Source: Pirellulales bacterium
Lineage (GTDB): Bacteria > Planctomycetota > Planctomycetia > Pirellulales > PALSA-1355
Assembly: GCA_022844125.1 (NCBI GenBank)
Contig: JALHMI010000019.1
Coordinates: forward strand, 40,359 to 104,358
Reading direction: 5' to 3'
DNA length: 64,000 nt
The position numbers were made by a program, and so were the translations under genes. The notes under the pieces are model-generated. The model was given only the letters and a program-made list of their open reading frames with translations, did no database searches and was not told the DNA's origin. Shown here one piece after another: positions 29,694-43,951 of the stretch. Position 1 is the stretch's first letter, and the number at the start of each line of letters is the position of its first letter.

Positions 29694-31652
29694 ATGTGCG
29701 GCATTGCCGGCGCCATCTGGACCAACCCCGCGGTGGAAGTCTCCGCCGACGTGCTGGCGCGGATGACCGAGGTGCTCACGCATCGCGGCCCGGATGATTT
29801 CGGCGCATACACCAGCGCGCTGAAGACGCAAGCCGTGGCGGGAACGTCGCCCGGCGTCGCGCTCGGGCATCGGCGGTTGTCGATCATCGACGTCGCCGGC
29901 GGGCATCAGCCCATGTCGAACGAAGACGGTTCGGTATGGATCGTCTTCAATGGCGAGATCTACAACCACCGCGACTTGCGCCGCCGGCTGGAAGGCGCGG
30001 GACATCAGTTCCGCACGCATTCGGATACCGAAGCGATCGTCCATTTGTACGAGGACGAGGGGCTCGACTTTCTCCAACACCTGGACGGGATGTTCGCCCT
30101 GGCAATCTGGGACGCGCGCCGCCGCAGGCTGGTGATCGCCCGCGACCGGCTGGGAAAGAAGCCGCTGTACTACCGGGCGGAGTCCGACCGCCTGCTGCTG
30201 GCCAGCGAACTCAAGAGCCTGCTCGAAGTGCCGGGAATCCAGCGCAGCATGGATCCCCGCGCGCTAGATGAGTACTTCACGCTGCAATATGTGCCCCATC
30301 CGCGCACGATCCTGCGGGGGTTCAACAAGCTGGCGCCCGCTCACTACGGCGTGTTTCAGGACGGAACGTTTCGCACGGAGCGGTACTGGCAGCCGGACTT
30401 CAACCTGGAGGTGGAACGCCCTCTGGCCGATGCGGCAGCCGAACTGCGCGAGCTTCTGACCAGGTCTGTCCAGGCTCGGCTCGAAGCCGACGTACCACTG
30501 GGCGCGTTTCTATCCGGCGGCGTCGACTCGTCGCTGATCGTCGGGCTGATGCAGCAATTGAGTCGCGAACGGGTGAAGACCTTTTCGATCGGCTTTCCGA
30601 TCGCCTCGTACGATGAGTCGCAATACGCGCGCCAGGTGGCCGAGCGACTAGGAACCGATCACCACGAGTTTCGTGTCCAGCCGCGCGCAGTCGAGGTGCT
30701 GGAAAAGCTGGTCTGGCACTACGACGAGCCGTTTGCCGACAGCTCGGCGATTCCGACCTACTACGTTTCCAAATTGACGCGCGAGTTCGTCACGGTGGCA
30801 CTCACGGGCGATGGCGGCGACGAACTGTTCGCGGGCTACGACCGCTATCAGGCCGTGCGGCTGGCGTCGTACCTGGATCATCTGCCGAGGGCGGTGAAGT
30901 CGCTACTTGCGCGACCGGGAAACGCCGGCTGGGGGCAAGATCGCCCGCAGCGGTCGCTGCTCAGGCGTTTGGGTCGCTTCAGCGAGGCCTTGAACTTCGG
31001 CCCCCAGCGACGATACCTGGAATGGGTCTCGATGTTCAACGAAGCCCGCCGGGCCGAACTCTACAGCGATGAGCTCATCGAGCAGCTTCCAGATCACGAT
31101 CCGTTTGAGTTTCTCTCGGATGCCTTCGGCGAGGTGAATCGCCGCGATCCGGTCACAGCGGCCAGCCTGGTGGACCTGGTCACTTACTTGCCGTGCGATC
31201 TGATGACGAAAGTGGACATCGCGTCGATGGCCAATAGCCTGGAGTGCCGGGCCCCGATGCTCGATCACCGGCTGGTGGAGTTCGCGGCCGCGCTGCCGCT
31301 GCGCTATAAGCTGCATCGTGGGCGCGGAAAGCGGATTCTGAAGCTGGCATTTCCGGAGCTATTGCCGGATAGCGTGACGCGCCGTCCGAAAATGGGTTTC
31401 GGCGTGCCGCTTGCACAGTGGTTTCGCGGCGAACTGCGCCAGTACGCTCACGATGTGCTGCTCGACGAGCGAGCTCGCGCGCGCGGGTATTTTCGCCAGG
31501 GCGCAGTCGAGCGCCTGCTGACCGAGCACAACACGGGCGCTTTCGACCACGGCTATCGCCTGTGGGGCCTCTTGGTCTTCGAGCTGTGGCATCGCTGTTG
31601 GCTCGACGGGCATAATCGTGCCAAGCTGGCCGAAACCATCAGCGCCGGATAA
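29694..31652 (+). CDS. asnB: asparagine synthase (glutamine-hydrolysing) family amidotransferase
   Basis: Ntn start MCGIAG (Cys2 nucleophile) fixes the start at 29694. HRGPD and HRRLSIID. PP-loop FLSGGVDSS. C-terminal ...PKMGFGVP. Confidence 0.9.
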   Translation: MCGIAGAIWTNPAVEVSADVLARMTEVLTHRGPDDFGAYTSALKTQAVAGTSPGVALGHRRLSIIDVAGGHQPMSNEDGSVWIVFNGEIYNHRDLRRRLEGAGHQFRTHSDTEAIVHLYEDEGLDFLQHLDGMFALAIWDARRRRLVIARDRLGKKPLYYRAESDRLLLASELKSLLEVPGIQRSMDPRALDEYFTLQYVPHPRTILRGFNKLAPAHYGVFQDGTFRTERYWQPDFNLEVERPLADAAAELRELLTRSVQARLEADVPLGAFLSGGVDSSLIVGLMQQLSRERVKTFSIGFPIASYDESQYARQVAERLGTDHHEFRVQPRAVEVLEKLVWHYDEPFADSSAIPTYYVSKLTREFVTVALTGDGGDELFAGYDRYQAVRLASYLDHLPRAVKSLLARPGNAGWGQDRPQRSLLRRLGRFSEALNFGPQRRYLEWVSMFNEARRAELYSDELIEQLPDHDPFEFLSDAFGEVNRRDPVTAASLVDLVTYLPCDLMTKVDIASMANSLECRAPMLDHRLVEFAAALPLRYKLHRGRGKRILKLAFPELLPDSVTRRPKMGFGVPLAQWFRGELRQYAHDVLLDERARARGYFRQGAVERLLTEHNTGAFDHGYRLWGLLVFELWHRCWLDGHNRAKLAETISAG

Positions 31653-31848
31653 TCCGCACGGCGTGCTTCCCCCCGCCGCAGTGCTACAAGCCGAACTGGT
31701 CAAGCGGCACTCCAGACGCGCGACATTGCAGGCGCTGAATAATCCCATCGGGCACTACAGGCCTTTAGCCAACCTTGCCGAATGGATAAGATGCAACGAC
31801 CGGCATTTGCAGGCCTTTAAACGGCAGCACCCCTGCGGAGAGAGCGGC

Positions 31849-33108
31849 ATGAAGAGCAACGTCCTGGCGGTGGTCCTGGCGGGAGGCAAAGGAGAACGAC
31901 TCGAACCCCTCACGCGCGATCGGGCCAAGCCGGCGGTGCCGTTTGGCGGAGGCTACCGGATCATCGACTTCACGCTGTCGAACTGCATCAACAGCGGGAT
32001 TCGCAAGATCCTGGTGCTCACGCAGTACAAAGCGATGAGCCTCGACAGGCATATCAATCTCGGCTGGCAGCGACTCTTGTGCCGCGAGCTGGGCGAATGG
32101 ATCGACGTCGTGCCACCGCAGCAGCGCATCGACGAGCACTGGTACCAGGGCACCGCGGACGCCGTTTATCAGAACATCTATGCGCTGGAAAAAGAGCGGC
32201 CCGAGTACGTCCTGATTCTGGCCGGCGACCATATCTACAAGATGGATTACGGCCGGCTAGTCGACTATCACATTGAGAATAACGCCGATCTGACAGTGGG
32301 CGCGCTGCGGGCTCCGGCCAGCGAATCGCGGCATTTCGGCACACTCCAGATCGACGAGAACGAGCGGATCATCGGCTTTCAGGAGAAACCGCTCGAACCG
32401 GCCACGATTCCCGGCGACCCGGACCATATCTTCGCCTCGATGGGCATTTACGTCTTCACGGCACGGTTCCTGTTCGAGCAGTTGTGCCTGGACGCGACCA
32501 AGCCCGGCAGCCGGCATGACTTCGGACACAACATCATTCCGGCCGTGATCGACACGCACCGCGTGTTTGCCTTCCCGTTCCGCGACGAGAATCGTAAGCA
32601 GGACTCGTATTGGCGAGACGTCGGCACGCTGGACGCGTACTTCGAAGCAAACATGGACCTGGTGTCCGTCGACCCGCAACTGAACATGTACGACGAGCAC
32701 TGGCCCATCCGCACCTACCTGCCGAACTACCCGCCGCCGAAGTCGGTGTTCGCGGAGGAGGGCCCGAACGCCCGCCGCGGCCAGGCGCTCGACAGCATCG
32801 TCTGCCAGGGCTCGATCATCTCCGGCGGCACGGTCGAGCGGTCGATCCTGGGAACCAATACCCGGATCAATAGTTTCGCGCACGTGCAGGATTCAATCCT
32901 GTTGGACCACGTGGACATCGGCCGGCATGCGCGTGTGCGGCGGGCGATCATCGACAAGCACGTGCGGATCCCGCCTGGCACCGAGATCGGTTTCGATCAC
33001 GAGCAGGATCGAGCGCGGGGGTTCATGGTGAGCGAAGGGGGCGTGGTCGTGATTGCCAAGGCGGACGGCGTGGACCACTTCAGCGAACCGGCCCTGCTTT
33101 ATCGCTGA
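31849..33108 (+). CDS. glgC: glucose-1-phosphate adenylyltransferase
   Basis: Start ATG 31849. VVLAGGKGERLEPLTRDRAKPAVPFGGGYRIIDFTLSNCINSGI, WYQGTADAV, ILAGDHIYKMDY and YWRDVGTLDAYFEANMDL are all classic GlgC blocks. Confidence 0.92.
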   Translation: MKSNVLAVVLAGGKGERLEPLTRDRAKPAVPFGGGYRIIDFTLSNCINSGIRKILVLTQYKAMSLDRHINLGWQRLLCRELGEWIDVVPPQQRIDEHWYQGTADAVYQNIYALEKERPEYVLILAGDHIYKMDYGRLVDYHIENNADLTVGALRAPASESRHFGTLQIDENERIIGFQEKPLEPATIPGDPDHIFASMGIYVFTARFLFEQLCLDATKPGSRHDFGHNIIPAVIDTHRVFAFPFRDENRKQDSYWRDVGTLDAYFEANMDLVSVDPQLNMYDEHWPIRTYLPNYPPPKSVFAEEGPNARRGQALDSIVCQGSIISGGTVERSILGTNTRINSFAHVQDSILLDHVDIGRHARVRRAIIDKHVRIPPGTEIGFDHEQDRARGFMVSEGGVVVIAKADGVDHFSEPALLYR

Positions 33109-33316: not shown

Positions 33317-36154
33317 ATGTTCCGCGAAATCGGCGGATTCTTTACGCACTTGTTCGATGTCGAGGGTTTTCCGCCGCGCTGGTATTGCGGCAACTGGAGC
33401 GAAGGCCACGGCTGGCTGCACATTATCTCGGACCTCGGCGTCTGGACCGCTTACCTGGCGATTCCACTGGTGCTGTGGTACTTCGTGCTGCGCCGCCGCA
33501 CGCTGCCATTCCGGTTCATGTTCGTGCTGTTCGGAGCGTTCATCATTTTCTGCGGCACGACGCATCTGATGGAAGCGATCATCTTCTGGTGGCCGGCCTA
33601 TCGGCTGGCCGGCCTGATAAAGCTGGCCACCGCCGTCATTAGTTGGGCGACCGTGATCGCGCTGGTGCCGCTCTCCCCGAAGGTCCTCGGCATGCGCACG
33701 CCCGAGGAACTGGAGGCGATCGTTGAGGAGCGAACCGCTCAGCTCAACCGCGAAATCGAGGAACGCAAGCGGACCGAACGCGAACTGGCCCGGCAGCGTG
33801 AACTGCTGGAAGTCACGCTTTCCAGTATCGGCGATGCCGTGATCGCCACCGATACCGAGAAGCAGATCACGTTCATGAACCCGATCGCCGAGAAGCTGAC
33901 GGGCATGACCAACGCCGAGGCTAAGGGGCAGCCGCTCGACGGGGTGTTCCGGATCGTCAATGAGAACACACGGCAGCCAGTGGAGACTCCCTGCGACGCG
34001 GTGCTGCGCGAAGGGGTGATCGTGGGGCTGGCGAACCACACGGTGCTGATTGCGACGGATGGCCGCGAAACGCCGATCGACGATAGCGCGGCGCCAATTC
34101 GAGACAGCGAGGGAAGCGTGTTCGGCGTGGTGCTCGTGTTTCGCGACGCCACCGAGCAGCGCCGATACGTCGAAGCCCAGGAGCGGTTGGCCGCAATCGT
34201 CGAGAACTCGCAGGACGCGATCATCAGTCAGGACCTGGAGGGGAAAATCCTGAGCTGGAACCAGGGAGCTCAGAGGCTGTTCGGTTTCACCCCGGAGGAG
34301 GCGGTGGGGCGGTCAATCGAGATCGTCGTTCCGCCGGACATGCGCAGCGGGTACCAGCAGTCGATGCAGGCCCTGCGGCGCGGCGAGCCGGTGCAGTACA
34401 TCGACACCTTCCGAATACACAAGGACGGCACGCGGCTGGAAGTGTCCAGCCGGATCTCGCCGATCCGCGGGGGCGAGGGCCAGGTGATCGGCGCTTCAAA
34501 GATCTCGCACGACATCTCGGCCCAGAAACGCAACGAACGCGTCCTCAGGCTCTTCTCCGACGCGGGCACCGTGCTGTCCGTCCTCTCGGAAGAAGGCAGC
34601 ATGCTCGAGCGCCTGGCGCGGTTGACCGTGCCGCTGTTTGCCGACTGGTGCGTGGTCAGTATGATCGATCCCCACGGAAAGGTTAAAACCGTGGGCCGGG
34701 CGCACGGCGACGCGTCCAAGCAAGGCGTGCTGGACGAGTACCTCGCCAAGTACCCTCTGGATTGGAATGTTTCGTCGATCACCATGAATGTCCTGCGCTC
34801 GGGGCAGCCGGAGTTGATCAGCGACATGCCCGCGGCGGTGCTCGACGCATTGGCGACGGACGAGCAACACCGTGAGCTGTTGGGCAAGCTCTCGCCACGG
34901 TCGGTGTTGGTGGTGCCGATCGCGATTCGCGGCAAGACGGTGGGAGCGATCTCGTTTGCCTTGAACCATTCGTTCCGCCGCTACTCGGTGGATGACGTAT
35001 CCGTGGCAACCGAACTTGCGCGCCGGGCGGCCACGGCAATCGAAAACGCCCGGCTGTATCAAGAGCTACAGGAAGCGCAGCGGCAAAAAGATGACTTCCT
35101 GGCGATGCTGGCGCACGAGCTGCGCAATCCACTGGCGGCGATTCAGTACGCCAACCAGATCGCACAGCTTTCGCAGGCGCCCAGCGAAGAAGCCCACGAG
35201 ACGATTGATCGGCAAGTCAAGAGCCTCGCCCATCTGATCGACGATCTGCTGGACGTCTCGCGGATCACGCGAGACAAAATCCACCTCAAGAAAGAACACA
35301 TCGATGGCGCGATGCTCGCGCGGCGGGCGGCCGCGAGCATTCATCCCGTGATTGAGGGTCGCAAGCACGAACTCGAGGTGGATATTCCTCCGCAGCCACT
35401 GCCACTCCTGGTCGATCCGACCCGGCTCGAGCAGATTCTCGTGAACCTGCTGAGCAATGCAGCCAAGTACACACCCGAAGGAGGCAAGATCGCGCTGCGA
35501 TGTTTTGCCGAGGGGAATCAGGCGGTGTTTCAGGTCGAGGACAACGGCATCGGTATGCCCACCGAAGCGCTGCCGCGCGTGTTCGAACTGTTCACGCAGG
35601 TCGACCGCTCGCTCGACCGTTCGCAAGGCGGCCTGGGCATTGGCCTGACGGTCGTGCGCAAGCTGGCAGAAATGCACGGCGGGAGCGTGTCCGCCGACAG
35701 CCGGGGCTTGGGGCAAGGCAGCGTGTTCACCGTGCGATTGCCGCTCAGTGACGCGCCGCTCGACGCCGGCGCGCCGCAAGCCAAGCCACCACTAATGACC
35801 CAGCCTCGCCGCATTCTCGTGGTGGACGACAACGTCGATACGGCGAACAGCGTCGCCACGCTGCTTAAGCTGGCGGGACATGAAGTCTCGCTGGCACACG
35901 ACGGCCTGGCGGCGATCGACGCGGCCAAGCATTCGCACCCGGAGATCGTGCTGCTCGACATCGGTCTGCCAGGACTCGATGGCTATGCGGTCGCGCGCAC
36001 CTTGCGCGATCATCCCGAGTTGGCAAACGCGAAGCTGATTGCGGTGTCAGGTTACGGTCAGCCGGAAGATCGCCGCCGCGCACACGAGGCCGGCTTTGAC
36101 GAGCACCTGGTGAAGCCAGTGGCCTTCGACAAGCTGCTGTCGCTGATCAATTGA
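33317..36154 (+). CDS. hybrid sensor histidine kinase/response regulator with N-terminal ethylene-binding-domain-like membrane module, 2 PAS, GAF, HisKA, HATPase, REC
   Basis: Start ATG 33317 (MFREIGG). The N-terminal three helices match the ETR1 ethylene-binding domain (see findings). PAS blocks SIGDAVIATDTEKQITFMNP and SQDAIISQDLEGKILSWNQGA. H-box LAMLAHELRNPL. G-boxes DNGIGMP and GGLGIGLTVV. Receiver ILVVDDN...LLDIGLPGLDG...KLIAVSGYG...KP. Confidence 0.9.
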   Translation: MFREIGGFFTHLFDVEGFPPRWYCGNWSEGHGWLHIISDLGVWTAYLAIPLVLWYFVLRRRTLPFRFMFVLFGAFIIFCGTTHLMEAIIFWWPAYRLAGLIKLATAVISWATVIALVPLSPKVLGMRTPEELEAIVEERTAQLNREIEERKRTERELARQRELLEVTLSSIGDAVIATDTEKQITFMNPIAEKLTGMTNAEAKGQPLDGVFRIVNENTRQPVETPCDAVLREGVIVGLANHTVLIATDGRETPIDDSAAPIRDSEGSVFGVVLVFRDATEQRRYVEAQERLAAIVENSQDAIISQDLEGKILSWNQGAQRLFGFTPEEAVGRSIEIVVPPDMRSGYQQSMQALRRGEPVQYIDTFRIHKDGTRLEVSSRISPIRGGEGQVIGASKISHDISAQKRNERVLRLFSDAGTVLSVLSEEGSMLERLARLTVPLFADWCVVSMIDPHGKVKTVGRAHGDASKQGVLDEYLAKYPLDWNVSSITMNVLRSGQPELISDMPAAVLDALATDEQHRELLGKLSPRSVLVVPIAIRGKTVGAISFALNHSFRRYSVDDVSVATELARRAATAIENARLYQELQEAQRQKDDFLAMLAHELRNPLAAIQYANQIAQLSQAPSEEAHETIDRQVKSLAHLIDDLLDVSRITRDKIHLKKEHIDGAMLARRAAASIHPVIEGRKHELEVDIPPQPLPLLVDPTRLEQILVNLLSNAAKYTPEGGKIALRCFAEGNQAVFQVEDNGIGMPTEALPRVFELFTQVDRSLDRSQGGLGIGLTVVRKLAEMHGGSVSADSRGLGQGSVFTVRLPLSDAPLDAGAPQAKPPLMTQPRRILVVDDNVDTANSVATLLKLAGHEVSLAHDGLAAIDAAKHSHPEIVLLDIGLPGLDGYAVARTLRDHPELANAKLIAVSGYGQPEDRRRAHEAGFDEHLVKPVAFDKLLSLIN

Positions 36155-36570: not shown

Positions 36571-36611
36571 AAATAAAAAAAGCGGCCCGAGAAAACTTTC
36601 TCTCGGGCCGC
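36571..36611 (-). terminator. intrinsic terminator of the MORN-repeat gene
   Basis: GCGGCCCGAGAAA / TTTCTCGGGCCGC stem (36582-36611), followed on the minus strand by TTTTTTTATTT (36571-36581). Lies 36 nt past the stop at 36647. Confidence 0.75.
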
Positions 36612-36646
36612 TTGAATGGATTCTCGAACCGCATGCGCCCGCTAAT

Positions 36647-38038
36647 TTAGCGAACCGCGGGACGCTGCGATTGGTTGCCACGCGGGGCCGGAGCCGGGCG
36701 ACGGGCGGTGTTGGCCGGCGTCTTGCTCGGAGCGGGCGCGGCCGGAACCGCCAGCGGCTCAAGCTGACGCGGCGTTTCGATCACCACGCCTTCGGAGTGC
36801 GAGAGATCCGCGGACTGCACCACGCGACCATCTTCGTGCCACCAGGTCCAGCGGCCGGTCGGATTGCCATGGGCATATTCGCCTTCGATTGACTTCTGAC
36901 CATTGGCGTGCCACCAGGTCCAATCGCCATCCTGCTTGCCGCGATCAAAGGTGCCTTCAAGGGCCCGCTGACCGTTCGAGTGCCACCAGGTGAATTTGCC
37001 CACCTGCAGGTCGTGTTCGTAGGCGCCTTGCAGTTGCATCTGACCGCTGGGGAACCAACTCGTCCAGGGACCGTGCTTTTCATCCTTACCACTCTTCACC
37101 GTGGTCAGGAGCTTGCAGGTCCACCAATCGTCGGGCGTGTGCTCGACGTCCTTGGCGAACAGATACACGCCTTCGGACTTCTTGGCTTTGCCGTCCTTGT
37201 AGTACGCGGTCTTGGAGGCGATCTTACGGCCTTCTTCGTACTGTTCCTTCACTCGGACCGTGCCGTCCGGAGCCCATTCAAAGTAGTCACCCTGCATGTC
37301 GCCGTGGACGAAAGTCGCTTCGCGCATCTTCTTGTCGTTGGTGAACCACCAGGTCGAAGTGCCGTTGCGCTTGCCCTTTTCGAAAGACCACTGGCTGATC
37401 TTGCGGGTCTTGCCGTCGTAGATCGTCCACAGGCCGTCGAGCAGATCGTTCTTGAACTCGGCCTGCGAGATGAACGGTCCGGGGAACAGCGAGTAGGGCG
37501 CCTTCGAGAGAATGTTGGCTTCCTGCACGCTGCGATACCAGCGAATCCAGACGCCCGTGCGATTGCCGTACTCGTACTGACCCTGGACTTGCAAGTTGCC
37601 TCGCTCGTCCCACATCTTCCACGATCCATGGTTGACGTAGTTGCCGGCGGCGTCCTGGGTGGTTTCGCGTTCGATGCGAATCGAACCGTTCGGGAATCGC
37701 TCCTTGATCAACTCGACGCCGTCTTCGGCCGGAGCGTCGTCCTCGCTCGACAGCGCTTCGTCCGCATCTTTCGTCTCGTCCATCGCGACGGGTTTATCCT
37801 CAGCCGGCTGATCCAGCGGCTGGGCAACTTCGTCGCCCGCGGTGTACGGATAAGAATCGGCGGTCGACTCTTCTTCGTCGGCAGGTAGCTCGACAACGTA
37901 ATCGGCGGCCTGGGGCTCGTGGGCTGCCTGCACGACCGGCTGGCTGGGCTTGCGGCCGTCAGCGGCTTGCGTGGGCATTGCCGAGACCAGCGCCATTCCC
38001 AGCGTCAGCGGCGTGATCCAGTTCGTGGCGCGTAACAT
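36647..38038 (-). CDS. secreted MORN-repeat (YwqK-like) protein
   Basis: ATG 38038 with AAGGAG 6 nt upstream. Signal peptide MLRATNWITPLTLGMALVSAMPTQA. Acidic linker, then repeated G-x-W-x-x-W-x-x-NGQ...G-x-Y units (e.g. DGDWTWWHANGQKSIEGEYAHGNPTGRWTWWHEDG). Confidence 0.8.
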   Translation of the reverse strand: MLRATNWITPLTLGMALVSAMPTQAADGRKPSQPVVQAAHEPQAADYVVELPADEEESTADSYPYTAGDEVAQPLDQPAEDKPVAMDETKDADEALSSEDDAPAEDGVELIKERFPNGSIRIERETTQDAAGNYVNHGSWKMWDERGNLQVQGQYEYGNRTGVWIRWYRSVQEANILSKAPYSLFPGPFISQAEFKNDLLDGLWTIYDGKTRKISQWSFEKGKRNGTSTWWFTNDKKMREATFVHGDMQGDYFEWAPDGTVRVKEQYEEGRKIASKTAYYKDGKAKKSEGVYLFAKDVEHTPDDWWTCKLLTTVKSGKDEKHGPWTSWFPSGQMQLQGAYEHDLQVGKFTWWHSNGQRALEGTFDRGKQDGDWTWWHANGQKSIEGEYAHGNPTGRWTWWHEDGRVVQSADLSHSEGVVIETPRQLEPLAVPAAPAPSKTPANTARRPAPAPRGNQSQRPAVR

Positions 38039-38225
38039 TCCGCACTCCTTTGCTAGCATGAATATCTAGCACCGTCCCTGTCTTGGTGCTAAACGGTCCT
38101 TGCCGGAAGTATCGGCAAAACCGCCCCGGCCGCTTGTGGGGATTTCGCGGAGAGAGCGCAATAATTGGTCGTCTGACAACCAGCGTTCCAACCAGCAACC
38201 GAAATCGGGGCGCGACGGACACACG

Positions 38226-40808
38226 CTAGTCGTTCGCGCGCTGGACATCTTTCGGCTTGGCCGCCACGCGGCTCGAGACCCGCCGCGGACCGTAGGCCAG
38301 GCCGATCCAGCCGTCTTCGACCGTGAACTGCGAGATTTGCAAGTCCTTCAAACGCTCGTCGCCCGTGATCGACTCGGGCAGCAGCCGCAGATCGCGATTC
38401 TTGGAAAGTACCTTGGAAAAGATCGCTCGCAGTTTGAACTCGATTTTGCCGCGCATCGACTCGCCGTCCAATCGCAGCGAGTACTGCGGATTGGAATCCC
38501 GTTCGAACAACGGGGTGAGCGACTCGAGCTTGGGGACATAATATGCCCGAACCTGAAAGTCGTGCCAGCGGCTTCCCTCTTGGCGGAGTTCCTTGATCGC
38601 GAACGTGACCTCCAACCGCCCGTCCACGGTATCGAGCCGCACGGCGTCCCGATCGGCGAATGTGATCCGCACCTTCTCCGGCAGGTCTTCCTGCTTGGCC
38701 AGTTCCGGGTTGCCAAGCTTATCGCCCACCCAGGTGAACAGTTCGGCCAATTCGAACCGCCGGCCTTCGAGGTCGAGCGACTCGAGCATGTTATTGATGG
38801 CCGATTGATGTACTTGCACACTGAACCAACTGTCCGAGGGTGCCCGCGGTCGGGGCGTAAACGCGCCCATCTGCTCGTCACTCCCCAGCCGCAATCGCGC
38901 GGCGATGCGCTCTTCGGTCGTGGCCAGCGAGATCGGCACGAGCTCCAGTCCCAAGCGATCGAGCGCGGCCCCCTGCCCGTCTCGCATCTTGCGTTCGGTT
39001 TCCGCCAGGCGAGTTTGCACTTCGCTGTCGAGCTGCTGCAAGGCGCGGGAGGCAATCTTGAATTCCGTCTGGCGGCGGGCCTGGCCCCGGGCCTCGTCGT
39101 GCTGATTGCGAGCGATATTGCGGACGACCGAACCCACGATCGGCACGCCGTCGTAGTCGGTCTCGAGCGCGACCAGGTTGTTCCAGTTGTTCTCCGCTTC
39201 GGCGACCGCTGGCCAGACAAACAGCCCCTGCGGGCCGAAGACCAACAGCTTGCGGGCCAGGAACGTCGACTGACCCTGGTTGCGCAAGCGAACTGGCCCG
39301 GCATCCGAGACCGTGTTGGCCGCCACCGTGCCGTGCGCTTCCAGCCCGATGCGAATCCGCTGCGGGTCGGGCACGAACAGCACCGAGAGTTTGGTGAACG
39401 TGCTGCTGTGGCCGCGGACCGGAACATTCACGACCGTGTCGCGCACCGGCGCATCGATGCGACCGGGCTGCGGAACCAGGCGATTGGCCAGCTCGCTGCT
39501 GACCGCCACGCGCAGGTTGGCGTTGCGATAGTGCGTGTCCAGATGCGCGGCCAGCTCGCGAGCCGACTCGCCCTGGAGCGCGAGCAGGTTGCGGTAGCTG
39601 GCGGCCACAACCGCGGCATCGCTGGAGCGGCCGCTGTACTCGAGCTCTTCGAGATGCGTCAACAGCCTGTCGCCGTCGAAGTCGGTCGCGAGCCACGCCT
39701 GGAGTTCAACATTCAATTTCGCGAGCGGTCCGTCGGCAATGAATTTGCGCTGCTCCCGCGAGAGCTTTGGTGAATTCAGCCGGCTGATCGTGCGGCGGGC
39801 AACCTCGCGGCGGAGGTCAAGCGAAGCGTCATCCGACGCGGCCGACTTAAGCTGCGCGAGTTCGAGATACTCTCGCCAGGCCGCTTCCGCGGGATTGCCG
39901 GCGGAAAGCGCTTCGAAAGCGGTGAGCTGATGGCGAACGCGTGCGGCTGCCTGCTCGGATGACGGGATACGCGGCGGTTGCTCGTTCAATTGGGCGATGG
40001 CTTCCCAAATGTCGACCCACCGCATGACACCGTAGCGTGTCCGCGATGCCTGCGCTTCCAGCGAAGTGTCCGCGCCCGGCTGCAAGGCGTCACGCGTGAC
40101 GATTTGCTGTAAGTCGGCCAGTAGCTCGCGCTGCGCGGCGGGATCGGTCGCAAAGCACAGCTCGTTGATTAGTTGATTCGCACGCGGAACCCAGACGAGG
40201 TGGGCGTCTTCGTGCGCAAGCTCGGTAAGTTGCGCGAGCAGCTTTCGCGGCAGTGGCCACCTCGGTTCGGGCTCCGCGGGAGTCTCCTCGACGGGCGATT
40301 CAACGACCGGTGCTTCCTCCACCGTCGGCGGCTCGGCCGAGAGCGGTGATTCGGGCGGCGTTTCAGCCTGCGGGAATTCTGGTTCGGCGACCGGCGCTGG
40401 TTCGACGGGGGCTGCCAGCCGCGGCAGAGCCGCCAGTTGGTCAGGCGCGGTATCGAGGACAACGCCATCGAGCGGCGAATCGTCGTCGAGGCGAAAATCC
40501 TCGGCGAAGTATGGCGCGGGAGGCACGAGCAGCGCGGGCAGGACCTCGGGTGCGCCCGGGCCTGCAAATGGCTGGGCAAACTCCAGCTCCGCCTCGCGCG
40601 GCGCAAGCTCCGAGGTGTCGGTCGTTTCCAGGTCGATCGGCGCGGGTGGGTCTGTTTTCGCGGTGCGCACCAGCGCCTGCGGCTTGGGCGACAGACTGCG
40701 TTGCGCGCGGCGCTCCCAGGCGCGGGGCGCCGTCAGGCTGAGCAGGAACAGGCAACCCAGGATGCCCAGGTACGGCCAGATCGGACTCGACTTCGACTTC
40801 TTCTTCAT
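38226..40808 (-). CDS. large hypothetical membrane-anchored protein (860 aa), no recognised domain
   Basis: ATG 40808 (MKKKSKSSPIWPYLGILGCLFLLSL gives one N-terminal TM). Pro/Glu-rich spacer, then about 650 aa with coding-like composition and no motif I recognise. The opposite-strand ORF 38100-39773 looks like a shadow ORF. Confidence 0.7.
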   Translation of the reverse strand: MKKKSKSSPIWPYLGILGCLFLLSLTAPRAWERRAQRSLSPKPQALVRTAKTDPPAPIDLETTDTSELAPREAELEFAQPFAGPGAPEVLPALLVPPAPYFAEDFRLDDDSPLDGVVLDTAPDQLAALPRLAAPVEPAPVAEPEFPQAETPPESPLSAEPPTVEEAPVVESPVEETPAEPEPRWPLPRKLLAQLTELAHEDAHLVWVPRANQLINELCFATDPAAQRELLADLQQIVTRDALQPGADTSLEAQASRTRYGVMRWVDIWEAIAQLNEQPPRIPSSEQAAARVRHQLTAFEALSAGNPAEAAWREYLELAQLKSAASDDASLDLRREVARRTISRLNSPKLSREQRKFIADGPLAKLNVELQAWLATDFDGDRLLTHLEELEYSGRSSDAAVVAASYRNLLALQGESARELAAHLDTHYRNANLRVAVSSELANRLVPQPGRIDAPVRDTVVNVPVRGHSSTFTKLSVLFVPDPQRIRIGLEAHGTVAANTVSDAGPVRLRNQGQSTFLARKLLVFGPQGLFVWPAVAEAENNWNNLVALETDYDGVPIVGSVVRNIARNQHDEARGQARRQTEFKIASRALQQLDSEVQTRLAETERKMRDGQGAALDRLGLELVPISLATTEERIAARLRLGSDEQMGAFTPRPRAPSDSWFSVQVHQSAINNMLESLDLEGRRFELAELFTWVGDKLGNPELAKQEDLPEKVRITFADRDAVRLDTVDGRLEVTFAIKELRQEGSRWHDFQVRAYYVPKLESLTPLFERDSNPQYSLRLDGESMRGKIEFKLRAIFSKVLSKNRDLRLLPESITGDERLKDLQISQFTVEDGWIGLAYGPRRVSSRVAAKPKDVQRAND

Positions 40809-41146
40809 GCACGCCACTCCTTGAAGGCGGGGTCGTCCGGACACCCCCGCGCAACTATCCGCGAGCCAAGCCATCGGACCGCCTGCCGGCATGCCGGAAA
40901 CGGCGGGCGAGGCTGAGCGGCCACAGGCACGAGCGCACCTGGACCGTACGATCGTCCACGTTCATAGAATCGGTAGACTCCAGAGCCGGAGTCGATTGTT
41001 TGTTCGGCAGCTTTTGACAGTCGAGCGGCGCGACCCGAGAGATTGCGCAAACTTTGCGGTCAGCGGACCGGCAGTTTGAACTGGGCGGGGGGCAGCCCTA
41101 AGATGGGCGCTGCCGTCCTTCTTTCTCCTGCGAGCTGCAAGCGACC

Positions 41147-42553
41147 ATGCGCTGGCCCCTGCGATACCAGATTCTCGTTCCTTTCGCCGGCACGATGCTG
41201 GCAGTGGTGGCGGTCGTCAGCTCGCTGGACGCGGTCCTTTCGGCTCGCCGCAGCCAGCAGCAGATTGAAGGGCAGCTTGGTGAGGTCGCCCGCACGCTCG
41301 AGGCGGCGAACTTTCCGCTGACGGACGCCGTGCTCAAACAGACGCGCGGACTGGCTGGAGCGGACTTTGTGCTGACAGACCGACAAGGCCAACTACTGGC
41401 GGCCAGCCGGAGAGACCTCTCGGCCCAGACGTTGGCAAAGTTTCCGGCAGCAGGCGAGGTAAAACTCGATCGACCGCTCGTCCTCGCCGACGGCACGTAC
41501 CTGCACGCTGCGGTCAGTCTCGCGCCGCATGGACTAGCCAGCGATCCGCGCGCCCTGCACATTCTTTATCCGCAGGACGATCTGCGACTGGCTCGCTGGC
41601 AGGCGGCGTATCCTTCGCTGGTCGTGGGCAGCCTGGCGCTCGTGGTCGTGGCGGTGCTGGCTACGGCCATTGCCGGGCGGATGAGCCGGCCGATCCTGGA
41701 ACTGCGCCAGCAGCTCGGCCGCCTGGTCCGCGGCGAGTTCCAGCCGCTTGCGGTGCCCGCGAGAAACGACGAACTCAGCGACCTGGTTCGCTCGGCCAAC
41801 TCGCTGGGGGAACAGCTCGAGGAAATGCAGCGCGTCATCAAGCGTTCCGAGCGGCTCTCGCTGCTCGGCCAGTTGAGCGGTGGCCTGGCACATCAACTCC
41901 GCAACAGCGTCACGGGCGCAAGGATCGCCGTGCAACTTCACCAGCGGCACTGCGCGGGACGCGATGCCGAGAGCCTGGAGGTCGCGCTGCGGCAACTCAA
42001 GATCACCGAGTCGCACCTGCAGCGATTTCTGTCCGTGGGACGCCCCACTGCGCCACAACAGACAGAGTGCGACGTGCCACAGTTGATCGAGGAAGTCGTG
42101 GCGCTCGTGGCGCCGGCCTGCAAGCACCAGCGGGTAGCACTCAAATTTTCCTCCGCGGATGGCTGCGAGACTTCGCTTCCCGCCGATGCGGAACAGTTGC
42201 GGCAAATGCTGATGAACCTCGTGCTCAATGGCATCGAGGCGGCCGCACCGAACGGCTGGGTGCGCATCGAACTGGAAGAAGAGCCCTCGCTCGTGCGGCT
42301 GCGCGTGCTCGACAGCGGTGCGGGGCCAGACGCCGAAGTGGCCGATCGACTGTTCGAGCCGTTCGTGACCGGGAAACCGGAAGGCATCGGCCTGGGACTG
42401 CCCGTGGTGCGGCAGATCGTCGCGGCCCACGACGGCACGGTGCGATTGCTGCCCGGAACACCCACGTGCTTTGAAGTCACACTGCCGCGCGGCCCCATGG
42501 CGGAAGGACCGGCGCCCGTTCCGGCCCAAGCAGCCGGCGCTACCAACACCTAA
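41147..42553 (+). CDS. sensor histidine kinase (periplasmic sensor, HAMP, HisKA, HATPase; NtrB/AtoS-like)
   Basis: 468 aa with two TM segments flanking a roughly 140-aa extracytoplasmic region. HAMP-like SRPILELRQQLGRLVRGEF. H-box GGLAHQLRNSV. N/G boxes NLVLNGIEA, DSGAGP, GIGLGLPVV. Confidence 0.85.
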   Translation: MRWPLRYQILVPFAGTMLAVVAVVSSLDAVLSARRSQQQIEGQLGEVARTLEAANFPLTDAVLKQTRGLAGADFVLTDRQGQLLAASRRDLSAQTLAKFPAAGEVKLDRPLVLADGTYLHAAVSLAPHGLASDPRALHILYPQDDLRLARWQAAYPSLVVGSLALVVVAVLATAIAGRMSRPILELRQQLGRLVRGEFQPLAVPARNDELSDLVRSANSLGEQLEEMQRVIKRSERLSLLGQLSGGLAHQLRNSVTGARIAVQLHQRHCAGRDAESLEVALRQLKITESHLQRFLSVGRPTAPQQTECDVPQLIEEVVALVAPACKHQRVALKFSSADGCETSLPADAEQLRQMLMNLVLNGIEAAAPNGWVRIELEEEPSLVRLRVLDSGAGPDAEVADRLFEPFVTGKPEGIGLGLPVVRQIVAAHDGTVRLLPGTPTCFEVTLPRGPMAEGPAPVPAQAAGATNT

Positions 42554-42568
42554 CTCTGGAAACGAGCG

Positions 42569-43951
42569 ATGAGCCACGTCCTGATCATCGACGACGAAGA
42601 GAGCATCTGCTGGGGACTGAAACGCCTGCTGCAAGAGTCGGGGCATTCGGTTGCCACGGCCTCGAGCGCCGAAGAAGGTCTCCAGCACGCCCGCCGCAAA
42701 TCGCCCGACCTGGTCGTGCTCGACGTGCGTCTGCCCGGAATGGACGGGCTCTCGGCCATGCAACCGCTCCGGCAGTGCGCCGGCGAGGTGCCGATCGTCG
42801 TGATCACGGCCTTCGGCAGCCTGGACGTTGCGGTCAGCGCAATGCGCAACGGAGCATTCGACTATCTGACCAAGCCGTTCGATCTGGAACAGGCCGCCAG
42901 CGTCATCGATCGCGCGCTTGCGCATCGGCCCATTCCGAAGGACTCGGACGCTGCCCGGGACGATGCGATGCACGCCGAACTGCTGGGGTCCAGTCCCGCG
43001 ATGCAGGAAGTCTTCAAGCGGATCGCGCTCGTGGCGCCGTCGGACGCCTCGGTGCTGATCACGGGCGAAAGCGGCACCGGCAAGGAACTGGTGGCCCGGG
43101 CGATTCACCGACATTCGCGTCGCGCGTCCGATCCGTTCGTTCCGATCCACCTGGCTTCGCTCAGCCCCACGCTGGTCGAAAGCGAGTTGTTCGGTCATGA
43201 ACGGGGCGCCTTCACGGGAGCCGAGTCGGCTCGCACGGGGCTTTTGGAGCTGGCCCACGGGGCCACCGTGTTTTTCGATGAAGCTGGCGACATTCCGCCC
43301 AGCGTGCAAGTGAAACTGCTGCGTGTGCTGGAACAATACGAGGTCACGCCGGTGGGCAGCGCGCAGCCGCGGGCGACAACCTTCCGCGTGATTGCCGCAA
43401 CGAACCGGCCGCTCGATTCACAGCCGGAAGCCTTGCGGCAGGAACTCTACTTCCGGCTGGCGGCGTTCGAGATTCATCTGCCGCCGCTGCGCGAGCGATT
43501 GCAAGACATCCCGCTGCTGGCCGAAGCTTTTCTGCGACGAGCACGCAGCGAAACGACCACCGCGACGAGCTTCTCGCTCGAGGCCATCGAAGAACTGTGC
43601 CGCCGCCACTGGCCGGGGAATGTCCGCCAACTGCGGCATGCCGTCGAGCATGGCCTGCTGCTCGCGCGCGGCCGGCAGATCGAGCTTGAACATCTGCCTC
43701 CGGCCGAACCCGAGTCGCAAGTGACCGTGGGAGACGACCTGCAAACAGCCGTGCGGAATTGGGCTCAGCGACAACTCGCCAGCCGGGCGGCCGAGGGGAA
43801 CATCTACCAGGAGTTTCTGGCCCGGGTGGAACCGTCGCTGTTCGACGTGGTGCTGGAGCAGACGACCGGCAATCGCGCCGCGGCGGCCGATCTGCTGGGG
43901 ATTCATCGGGCGACGCTGCGCAAGAAACTGGCCAGCAGCGACGAGTCGTAG
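42569..43951 (+). CDS. sigma-54-dependent response regulator (NtrC family)
   Basis: REC (VLIIDDE...VLDVRLPGMDG...KPF). AAA+ with Walker A GESGTGKE, the GAFTGA loop (ERGAFTGA) and ...RVIAATN. C-terminal Fis-type HTH NRAAAADLLGIHRATLRKKL. Confidence 0.92.
   Translation: MSHVLIIDDEESICWGLKRLLQESGHSVATASSAEEGLQHARRKSPDLVVLDVRLPGMDGLSAMQPLRQCAGEVPIVVITAFGSLDVAVSAMRNGAFDYLTKPFDLEQAASVIDRALAHRPIPKDSDAARDDAMHAELLGSSPAMQEVFKRIALVAPSDASVLITGESGTGKELVARAIHRHSRRASDPFVPIHLASLSPTLVESELFGHERGAFTGAESARTGLLELAHGATVFFDEAGDIPPSVQVKLLRVLEQYEVTPVGSAQPRATTFRVIAATNRPLDSQPEALRQELYFRLAAFEIHLPPLRERLQDIPLLAEAFLRRARSETTTATSFSLEAIEELCRRHWPGNVRQLRHAVEHGLLLARGRQIELEHLPPAEPESQVTVGDDLQTAVRNWAQRQLASRAAEGNIYQEFLARVEPSLFDVVLEQTTGNRAAAADLLGIHRATLRKKLASSDES

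Follow-up and report, generated by a model that had tools for sequence, protein, structure and literature searches.

Can a planctomycete protein sense ethylene through the same kind of domain as the receptors of plants? The question is raised by a gene at 33317-36154 in a 64,000-nucleotide stretch of DNA from a Pirellulales bacterium (contig JALHMI010000019.1 of assembly GCA_022844125.1, positions 40,359 to 104,358; hereafter the window). An earlier note had described its product as a hybrid histidine kinase with an amino terminus like that of Arabidopsis ETR1, and the open reading frame (ORF), its translation and a match to the Pfam family ETR1_N all agree with that description. According to Pfam the protein of 945 amino acids (aa) carries, in order, an ethylene-binding domain, two PAS domains, a GAF domain, HisKA, HATPase_c and a fused receiver, the downstream modules being those announced in the note. 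Judged by sequence comparison, the input module is a true and intact homologue of the ETR1-type ethylene-binding domain. The protein is probably a membrane-bound hybrid kinase that would work as an ethylene sensor dependent on Cu(I) and pass its signal to a phosphorelay.

The identity of the domain is established by the ETR1_N model (PF25487): positions 2-95 of its 97 align to aa 31-124 with E = 2.1e-35, and the score of 121 bits is four to five times the gathering cutoff, 27. Transmembrane segments can yield spurious low-complexity similarity, and the resemblance to ETR1 might on that ground be a chance or compositional match of hydrophobic helices. This explanation is already refuted by the Pfam score, by compositionally adjusted BLASTP, which gives E = 9e-20 and 32% identity with oil-palm ERS1 and E = 4e-28 with the bacterial receptor AzoEtr1, and by the nature of the conserved positions, which are the polar, functional ones.

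All seven residues cited as required for ethylene binding by ETR1 (PMC11819568) are in place, as found by direct counting and by alignment. D39, Y46, I49, P50, I76, C79 and H83 correspond to Asp25, Tyr32, Ile35, Pro36, Ile62, Cys65 and His69 of ETR1, as the note had proposed (with C79 at 33551 and H83 at 33563), and K102 corresponds to Lys91. The functions of Asp25, Cys65, His69 and Lys91 have been described for ETR1: Asp25 has a role in copper and ethylene affinity and Lys91 is its proposed relay partner (PMC10266040). An ETR1 amino-terminal sequence was used solely as bait for real plant sequences and retrieved proteins named "ethylene receptor" or "ERS1" with 83-91% identity. In a MAFFT alignment with named plant receptor fragments the columns of Y46, I49, P50, I76, C79, G80, H83 and K102 are invariant and D39 falls on Asp25. 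The Pfam, plant and AzoEtr1 alignments agree in placing C79 and H83 on the copper ligands and D39, Y46 and P50 on essential positions.

The peptide blocks quoted in the earlier note are found in the translation where it had put them, with two of its comparisons needing amendment. Helix 3 does correspond to that of ETR1 (KLATAVISWATVIALV versus KVLTAVVSCATALMLV), but the alignment is ungapped and has no need of the gap written as 'K-LATAV...'. The 14-residue spacer is identical in length and not in sequence. The loop between the second and third transmembrane (TM) helices is 3 residues shorter than that of ETR1, an actual length difference.

Conservation was followed in 143 representative sequences and in 44 genome loci carrying the domain. 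Each of D39, Y46, I49, P50, I76, C79, H83 and K102 is retained in 138 or more of the 143 representatives and in 43 or more of the 44 loci. C79, H83 and I49 occur in all 143 representatives, C79 and H83 also in all 44 loci, in AzoEtr1 and in the plant sequences; the position of K102 is Lys in 138/143. The ratio of nonsynonymous to synonymous substitution rates (dN/dS) of the ethylene-binding domain is 0.04 and 0.06 in comparisons with the orthologues of the close relatives L001 and L002, and this domain together with the DHp domain has the lowest dN/dS in the protein.

Zavarzinella formosa DSM 19928 has an intact close homologue at L042:10001-12391, with 52% identity in the best segment, and about 8 kb from it a second ETR1_N protein (L042:2-2332, minus strand, cut by the locus end). 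The second protein scores 76 bits with ETR1_N and continues with DUF4118 and PAS domains, but it has Ile at the position of the copper-ligand Cys, Cys at that of Tyr46 and Val at that of C24. It is probably a degenerate ethylene-binding domain that does not bind copper. By the same residues the window copy is not degenerate, unlike this paralogue.

The part of the protein that follows the membrane domain is found behind other amino termini. The planctomycete kinase P0353 matches aa 143-944 of the window protein at 58% identity and shares its PAS-PAS-GAF-HisKA-HATPase_c-receiver part, but has CHASE3 as amino-terminal sensor instead of the ethylene-binding domain. P0354, P0356 and P0360-P0362 are further planctomycete hybrid kinases like P0353 (compared with window positions 33743-36148). 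Since the backbone is shared behind CHASE3, the ethylene-binding domain is, on these alignments, an interchangeable input module and belongs to a set of sensor heads swapped on the same planctomycete kinase backbone. That the backbone can work with other amino-terminal modules also lends something to the idea that the three helices are a mere membrane anchor and dimerisation device, with sensing left to the cytoplasmic PAS and GAF domains. This is very improbable: the charged or metal-binding residues D39, C79, H83 and K102 are kept inside the membrane across the 143 representatives, which is unexpected for a plain anchor, the domain is among the most constrained parts of the protein, and the Zavarzinella paralogue with its Cys to Ile change at the ligand position offers a picture of what relaxed constraint looks like.

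An AlphaFold model built from an 85-sequence alignment (predicted local distance difference test score, pLDDT, 94.5) has helices at aa 2-12, 29-59, 66-88 and 95-124. The last three are transmembrane helices and coincide with three hydropathy peaks at aa 45-49, 70-81 and 105-116, in agreement with the three-helix topology put forward in the note. Loop 1 contains four Arg and the amino-terminal segment has a net negative charge; by the positive-inside rule these features would place the amino terminus outside and the carboxyl terminus in the cytoplasm, the orientation predicted to match that of ETR1. A sequence search of the PDB with aa 1-148 returned only a chance match to a designed helical protein (E = 0.16), and a Foldseek search of the PDB with the model gave nothing at E <= 0.001.

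The segment ahead of the first transmembrane helix (TM1) begins with the amphipathic helix aa 2-12 and includes a motif, F18-P19-x-R21-W22-x-C24-G-x-W27...H-G-W-L-H35 (33368-33421, aa 18-35), most of which the Pfam model does not cover. Among the 143 representatives and 44 loci C24 and W27 do not vary, and R21, W22 and H35 are nearly invariant. C24 is the one invariant Cys within the predicted periplasmic amino terminus, and a possible role of the motif is disulfide dimerisation or copper entry.

The gene is complete (Table 1). Its start is ATG 33317 and not the upstream GTG 33278, because the orthologues of L001 and L002 (96% and 79% identical, respectively) begin at the same Met and both have 945 aa, and because nearly all of the 150 relatives listed have the domain from their residue 3-4 onwards, which corresponds to residue 7-8 here. 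HisKA, HATPase_c and Response_reg each score above the Pfam cutoff and all catalytic motifs of kinase and receiver can be located: the N box at aa 710, G1 (DNGIGM) at 742, the F box at 756 and G2 (GGLGIGL) at 771 in HATPase_c, and D837/D838, the phosphoacceptor D881 (35957-35959), S911 and K933 in the receiver. Kinase and receiver thus look catalytically competent from their motifs. The charged segment between the third transmembrane helix (TM3) and the first PAS domain would be a signalling helix.

Table 1. Features of the kinase gene and of its downstream neighbours (window positions; aa numbering of the 945-aa protein).
Feature	Position	Strand	Basis or remark
Hybrid histidine kinase gene, complete, 945 aa	33317..36154	plus	ORF and translation, Pfam domains, equal-length orthologues with the same Met
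Amino-terminal segment, aa 1-35, predicted periplasmic	33317..33421	plus	Conservation, AlphaFold helix 2-12, charge
Ethylene-binding domain (Pfam ETR1_N), aa 31-124	33407..33688	plus	PF25487, AlphaFold, hydropathy, dN/dS
D39 codon (ETR1 Asp25)	33431..33433	plus	Alignment
C79-G-T-T-H83 on TM2 (ETR1 Cu(I) ligands Cys65, His69)	33551..33565	plus	Alignment; C79 33551-33553, H83 33563-33565
K102 codon on TM3 (ETR1 Lys91)	33620..33622	plus	Invariant column in plant alignment
Charged helical linker, aa 125-167, TM3 to first PAS domain	33689..33817	plus	Sequence read; AlphaFold: TM3 helix to aa 124, then further helix
PAS domain 1, aa ~168-283	33818..34165	plus	PAS_4 E = 3e-14 on isolated fragment
PAS domain 2, aa 289-405	34181..34531	plus	PAS and PAS_4 at E ~ 1e-30
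GAF domain, aa 430-576, generic type	34604..35044	plus	PF01590 E = 1e-14
HisKA, dimerisation and phosphoacceptor, aa 590-651	35084..35269	plus	PF00512 E = 1e-15
Phosphoacceptor H600 in HELRNPL	35114-35116	plus	Motif position
HATPase_c catalytic domain, aa 700-811	35414..35749	plus	PF02518 E = 8e-29
Fused receiver, aa 833-944	35813..36148	plus	PF00072 E = 1e-21
MORN-repeat gene	36647-38059	minus	
888-aa protein gene	38226-40892	minus	No Pfam match at E <= 0.001
HAMP-HisKA-HATPase_c kinase	41147-42550		
NtrC-type sigma-54 activator	42569-43948		Receiver, AAA+ and HTH_8

The closest experimentally characterised protein in these comparisons is AzoEtr1, recovered from replicon p1 of Azospirillum brasilense Sp7 as L081:3007-4584, a 525-aa protein that begins MFGGVEAF, matching the primers in PMC11819568. 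Its first 130 aa display saturable 14C-ethylene binding (PMC11819568, PLoS Genet 2025). AzoEtr1 is 37% identical to the window domain and has the same residue at all eight positions, the seven and the Lys. Both proteins are bacterial, carry the domain at their extreme amino terminus with Cys, Trp and His ahead of TM1 (C24, W27 and H35 here), and continue with PAS and a canonical histidine kinase. They differ in that AzoEtr1 has a single PAS domain, no GAF domain and no fused receiver, and in that a response regulator gene follows immediately downstream (L081:4502-4984) while the window kinase has no adjacent partner.

Plant ETR1 and ERS1 have the same three-helix domain with the eight equivalent residues, and GAF, histidine kinase and receiver modules downstream. 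Identity of the domain to the plant receptors is 32-35%; ETR1 has Cys4 and Cys6 at its amino terminus where the window protein has one Cys, and the window protein differs further in its two PAS domains before GAF and in a kinase that is fully canonical. The two PAS domains and the 32-35% domain identity argue that it is not an orthologue of the plant subfamily-1 receptors; on this comparison it is a homologue of the ETR1 domain rather than an orthologue of a plant receptor. To our knowledge, no bacterial counterpart of the plant ethylene downstream pathway is to be expected.

SynEtr1 (slr1212) of Synechocystis sp. PCC 6803, compared here by description, likewise combines an ethylene-binding domain with PAS, GAF and histidine kinase. 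Its light sensing operates via a bilin-binding GAF domain. The window GAF domain matches only generic GAF models; its one Cys is C445, close to the start of the domain, and it lacks a Cys-His dipeptide; therefore nothing suggests a bilin photoreceptor of the SynEtr1 type. SynEtr1 is indeed a light receptor in addition to an ethylene receptor, and both it and AzoEtr1 signal by histidine-kinase phosphotransfer (PMC11819568). Domains encoded on cyanobacterial plasmids are ~45% identical to the window domain.

Is ethylene, then, the ligand? The module might be a homologous Cu(I)-binding transmembrane device for another physiological signal: another alkene, carbon monoxide, some other small molecule with affinity for Cu(I), copper itself, or redox status. 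In general chemistry several small unsaturated molecules are Cu(I) ligands, and these bacteria have no evident plant association. The clade also has invariant or nearly invariant residues that lie outside the Pfam model or are missing in plants, namely R21, W22, C24, W27 and H35 before TM1 and P93, Y95 and R96 in the outer loop. Such a change of ligand is nevertheless unlikely, if clearly less so than a plain anchor. Every known ethylene-binding residue is retained. Of the additional residues, C24, W27 and H35 are present in AzoEtr1, which binds ethylene (PMC11819568), together with P93 and Y95, AzoEtr1 lacking R21, W22, P64 and R96 of the planctomycete set. Bacterial domains of the ETR1 type tested so far all bind ethylene (PMC11819568, PMC6682694).

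The favoured reading, ethylene sensing that depends on Cu(I) and feeds into a phosphorelay, can be laid out as a sequence of steps drawn from PMC10266040 and PMC11819568. The protein would reside in the cytoplasmic membrane as a dimer. By analogy with ETR1, SynEtr1 and AzoEtr1, each monomer would hold one Cu(I) through C79 and H83 on TM2, helped by D39 on TM1, and ethylene would bind this Cu(I). The resulting change might be relayed via D39-K102 to TM3 and along a continuous helix into the PAS-PAS-GAF stack, altering H600 autophosphorylation and transfer to D881. From D881 the phosphoryl group would move on to an Hpt protein or response regulator whose gene is not linked. The direction of the response, probably a fall in kinase output on ethylene as judged from the plant receptors, is the least secure of these steps. 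Further inputs probably come from the PAS and GAF domains.

Several points weigh against this reading. Ethylene binding by planctomycete proteins of this kind would follow from homology, at an identity of just 32-37% to the experimentally tested domains, and the extra invariant residues of the clade could change ligand specificity. There is no solved structure of an ethylene-binding domain to compare with, and the putative D39/C79/H83/K102 site is placed by alignment and not by model geometry. The kinase has no linked gene for copper delivery, for an Hpt protein or for a partner regulator. Finally, the order of the surrounding genes (asnB, glgC, the MORN-repeat gene and the 888-aa gene) is conserved only in the close relatives L001 and L002 and gives no functional lead.

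The kinase gene is preceded on the same strand by genes for a GT4 glycosyltransferase, an asparagine synthase (asnB) and GlgC, while the MORN-repeat gene and then the 888-aa gene lie downstream on the opposite strand and converge on it. The nearest response regulator is the NtrC-type protein, which is paired with its own HAMP kinase; this bears out the earlier statement that no DNA-binding regulator is adjacent. The ethylene-binding-domain kinase is an orphan hybrid kinase whose partner is not readable from the context. The best-matching genome, 96% identical, is a Pirellulales metagenome-assembled genome, consistent with the planctomycete host assumed in the note. G+C content is flat across the window (~0.61-0.67) and therefore gives no sign of recent transfer. 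No second ethylene-binding domain occurs elsewhere in the 64-kb window, Rfam and tRNA scans of the window found nothing, and a scan for promoters and terminators found nothing convincing upstream of the kinase gene.

Three details of the neighbourhood can be added. A perfect hairpin at 36580-36613, with a 15-bp stem of which 9 pairs are G-C, lies just past the MORN-repeat stop codon with a T run after it on the minus strand and is likely an intrinsic terminator in the gap between the converging MORN-repeat and kinase genes. The 888-aa protein is also encoded beside a MORN-repeat gene in L001 (96% identity) and L002 (74%). The GlgC ORF delimited mechanically at 31618-33108 starts at GTG 31618 and overlaps the end of asnB; its true start is probably ATG 31846 (MKSNVLAVVLAGGKG), because the ORF is strongly conserved in L001 and L002 only from its residue 76 onwards.

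How widespread are such proteins? An exhaustive phmmer search with aa 1-130 against 1.84 billion representatives, clustered at 50% identity, found related domains in 7,836 clusters at E <= 1e-3, 5,541 at E <= 1e-10 and 826 at E <= 1e-30. A genome scan with one genome per species returned 80 loci, and a purpose-built hidden Markov model called the domain in 44 of them, nearly all from Planctomycetota: Pirellulales, Gemmataceae, Schlesneria, Mariniblastus and the cultured Zavarzinella formosa, with Bradymonadales and one bin labelled Actinomycetes in addition. The note had called such domains well characterised in plants and only a very few bacteria. The rarity that this suggests holds for characterised proteins but not for genomes, given a curated Pfam model, the 7,836 clusters and the dozens of planctomycete species in which the domain is predicted.

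Among 71 sampled representatives ETR1_N is present in all, PAS in 53, HATPase_c in 50, a receiver in 31 and GAF in nine. Homologues of 110-250 aa had suggested a family of stand-alone domains; the same bias towards short lengths appeared for plant receptors, so that it is mainly a property of the search tool, and full-length relatives were found in later homologue searches. P0010, P0012, P0015 and P0023 (144-233 aa) comprise scarcely more than the ethylene-binding domain. They are encoded on contigs of 200-720 kb and are therefore not shortened by contig ends; they may be stand-alone domain proteins or split genes, and the preference of the search tool for short proteins inflates their apparent frequency.

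Putative ethylene receptors have been noted in several bacterial phyla (PMC11819568) and 1,221 domains of eukaryotes and prokaryotes have been aligned in published work (PMC10266040). The open-access literature searched holds no substantive treatment of planctomycete ethylene receptors; the papers on bacterial distribution cited by PMC11819568 (Lacey & Binder 2016, Carlew et al. 2019, Papon & Binder 2019) were not among the texts searched. Because the domain is already catalogued, with its own curated Pfam model, and abounds in planctomycetes, the window protein represents no new kind of system. As a candidate with every expected residue in its sequence it is a sound improvement of annotation and not a discovery. 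A broader proposal, tentative and somewhat short of an even chance, is that functional ethylene receptors form a large and distinct clade in Planctomycetota that has gone unstudied, and that hybrid kinases there use the domain as an interchangeable input module. FPxRWxCGxW...HGWLH and FWWPAYRLAG are putative marker motifs of this clade.

Ethylene perception has been shown in plants, a few cyanobacteria, one plant-associated alphaproteobacterium and a mycorrhizal fungus (PMC11819568). The gene described here adds a candidate from a phylum without published work on the subject in the searched literature. Candidates of this kind are abundant in Planctomycetota yet hidden under an uninformative name, the source records calling them only "PAS domain S-box protein" or "PAS domain S-box-containing protein". 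If the broader proposal is true, ethylene would serve free-living heterotrophs in water and soil as a widespread cue from the environment, and not just plants and their associates as a signal. Should the planctomycete domains in fact bind ethylene, bacteria in general would be able to sense gas by means of Cu(I), and this ability would matter ecologically outside plant-microbe signalling as well.

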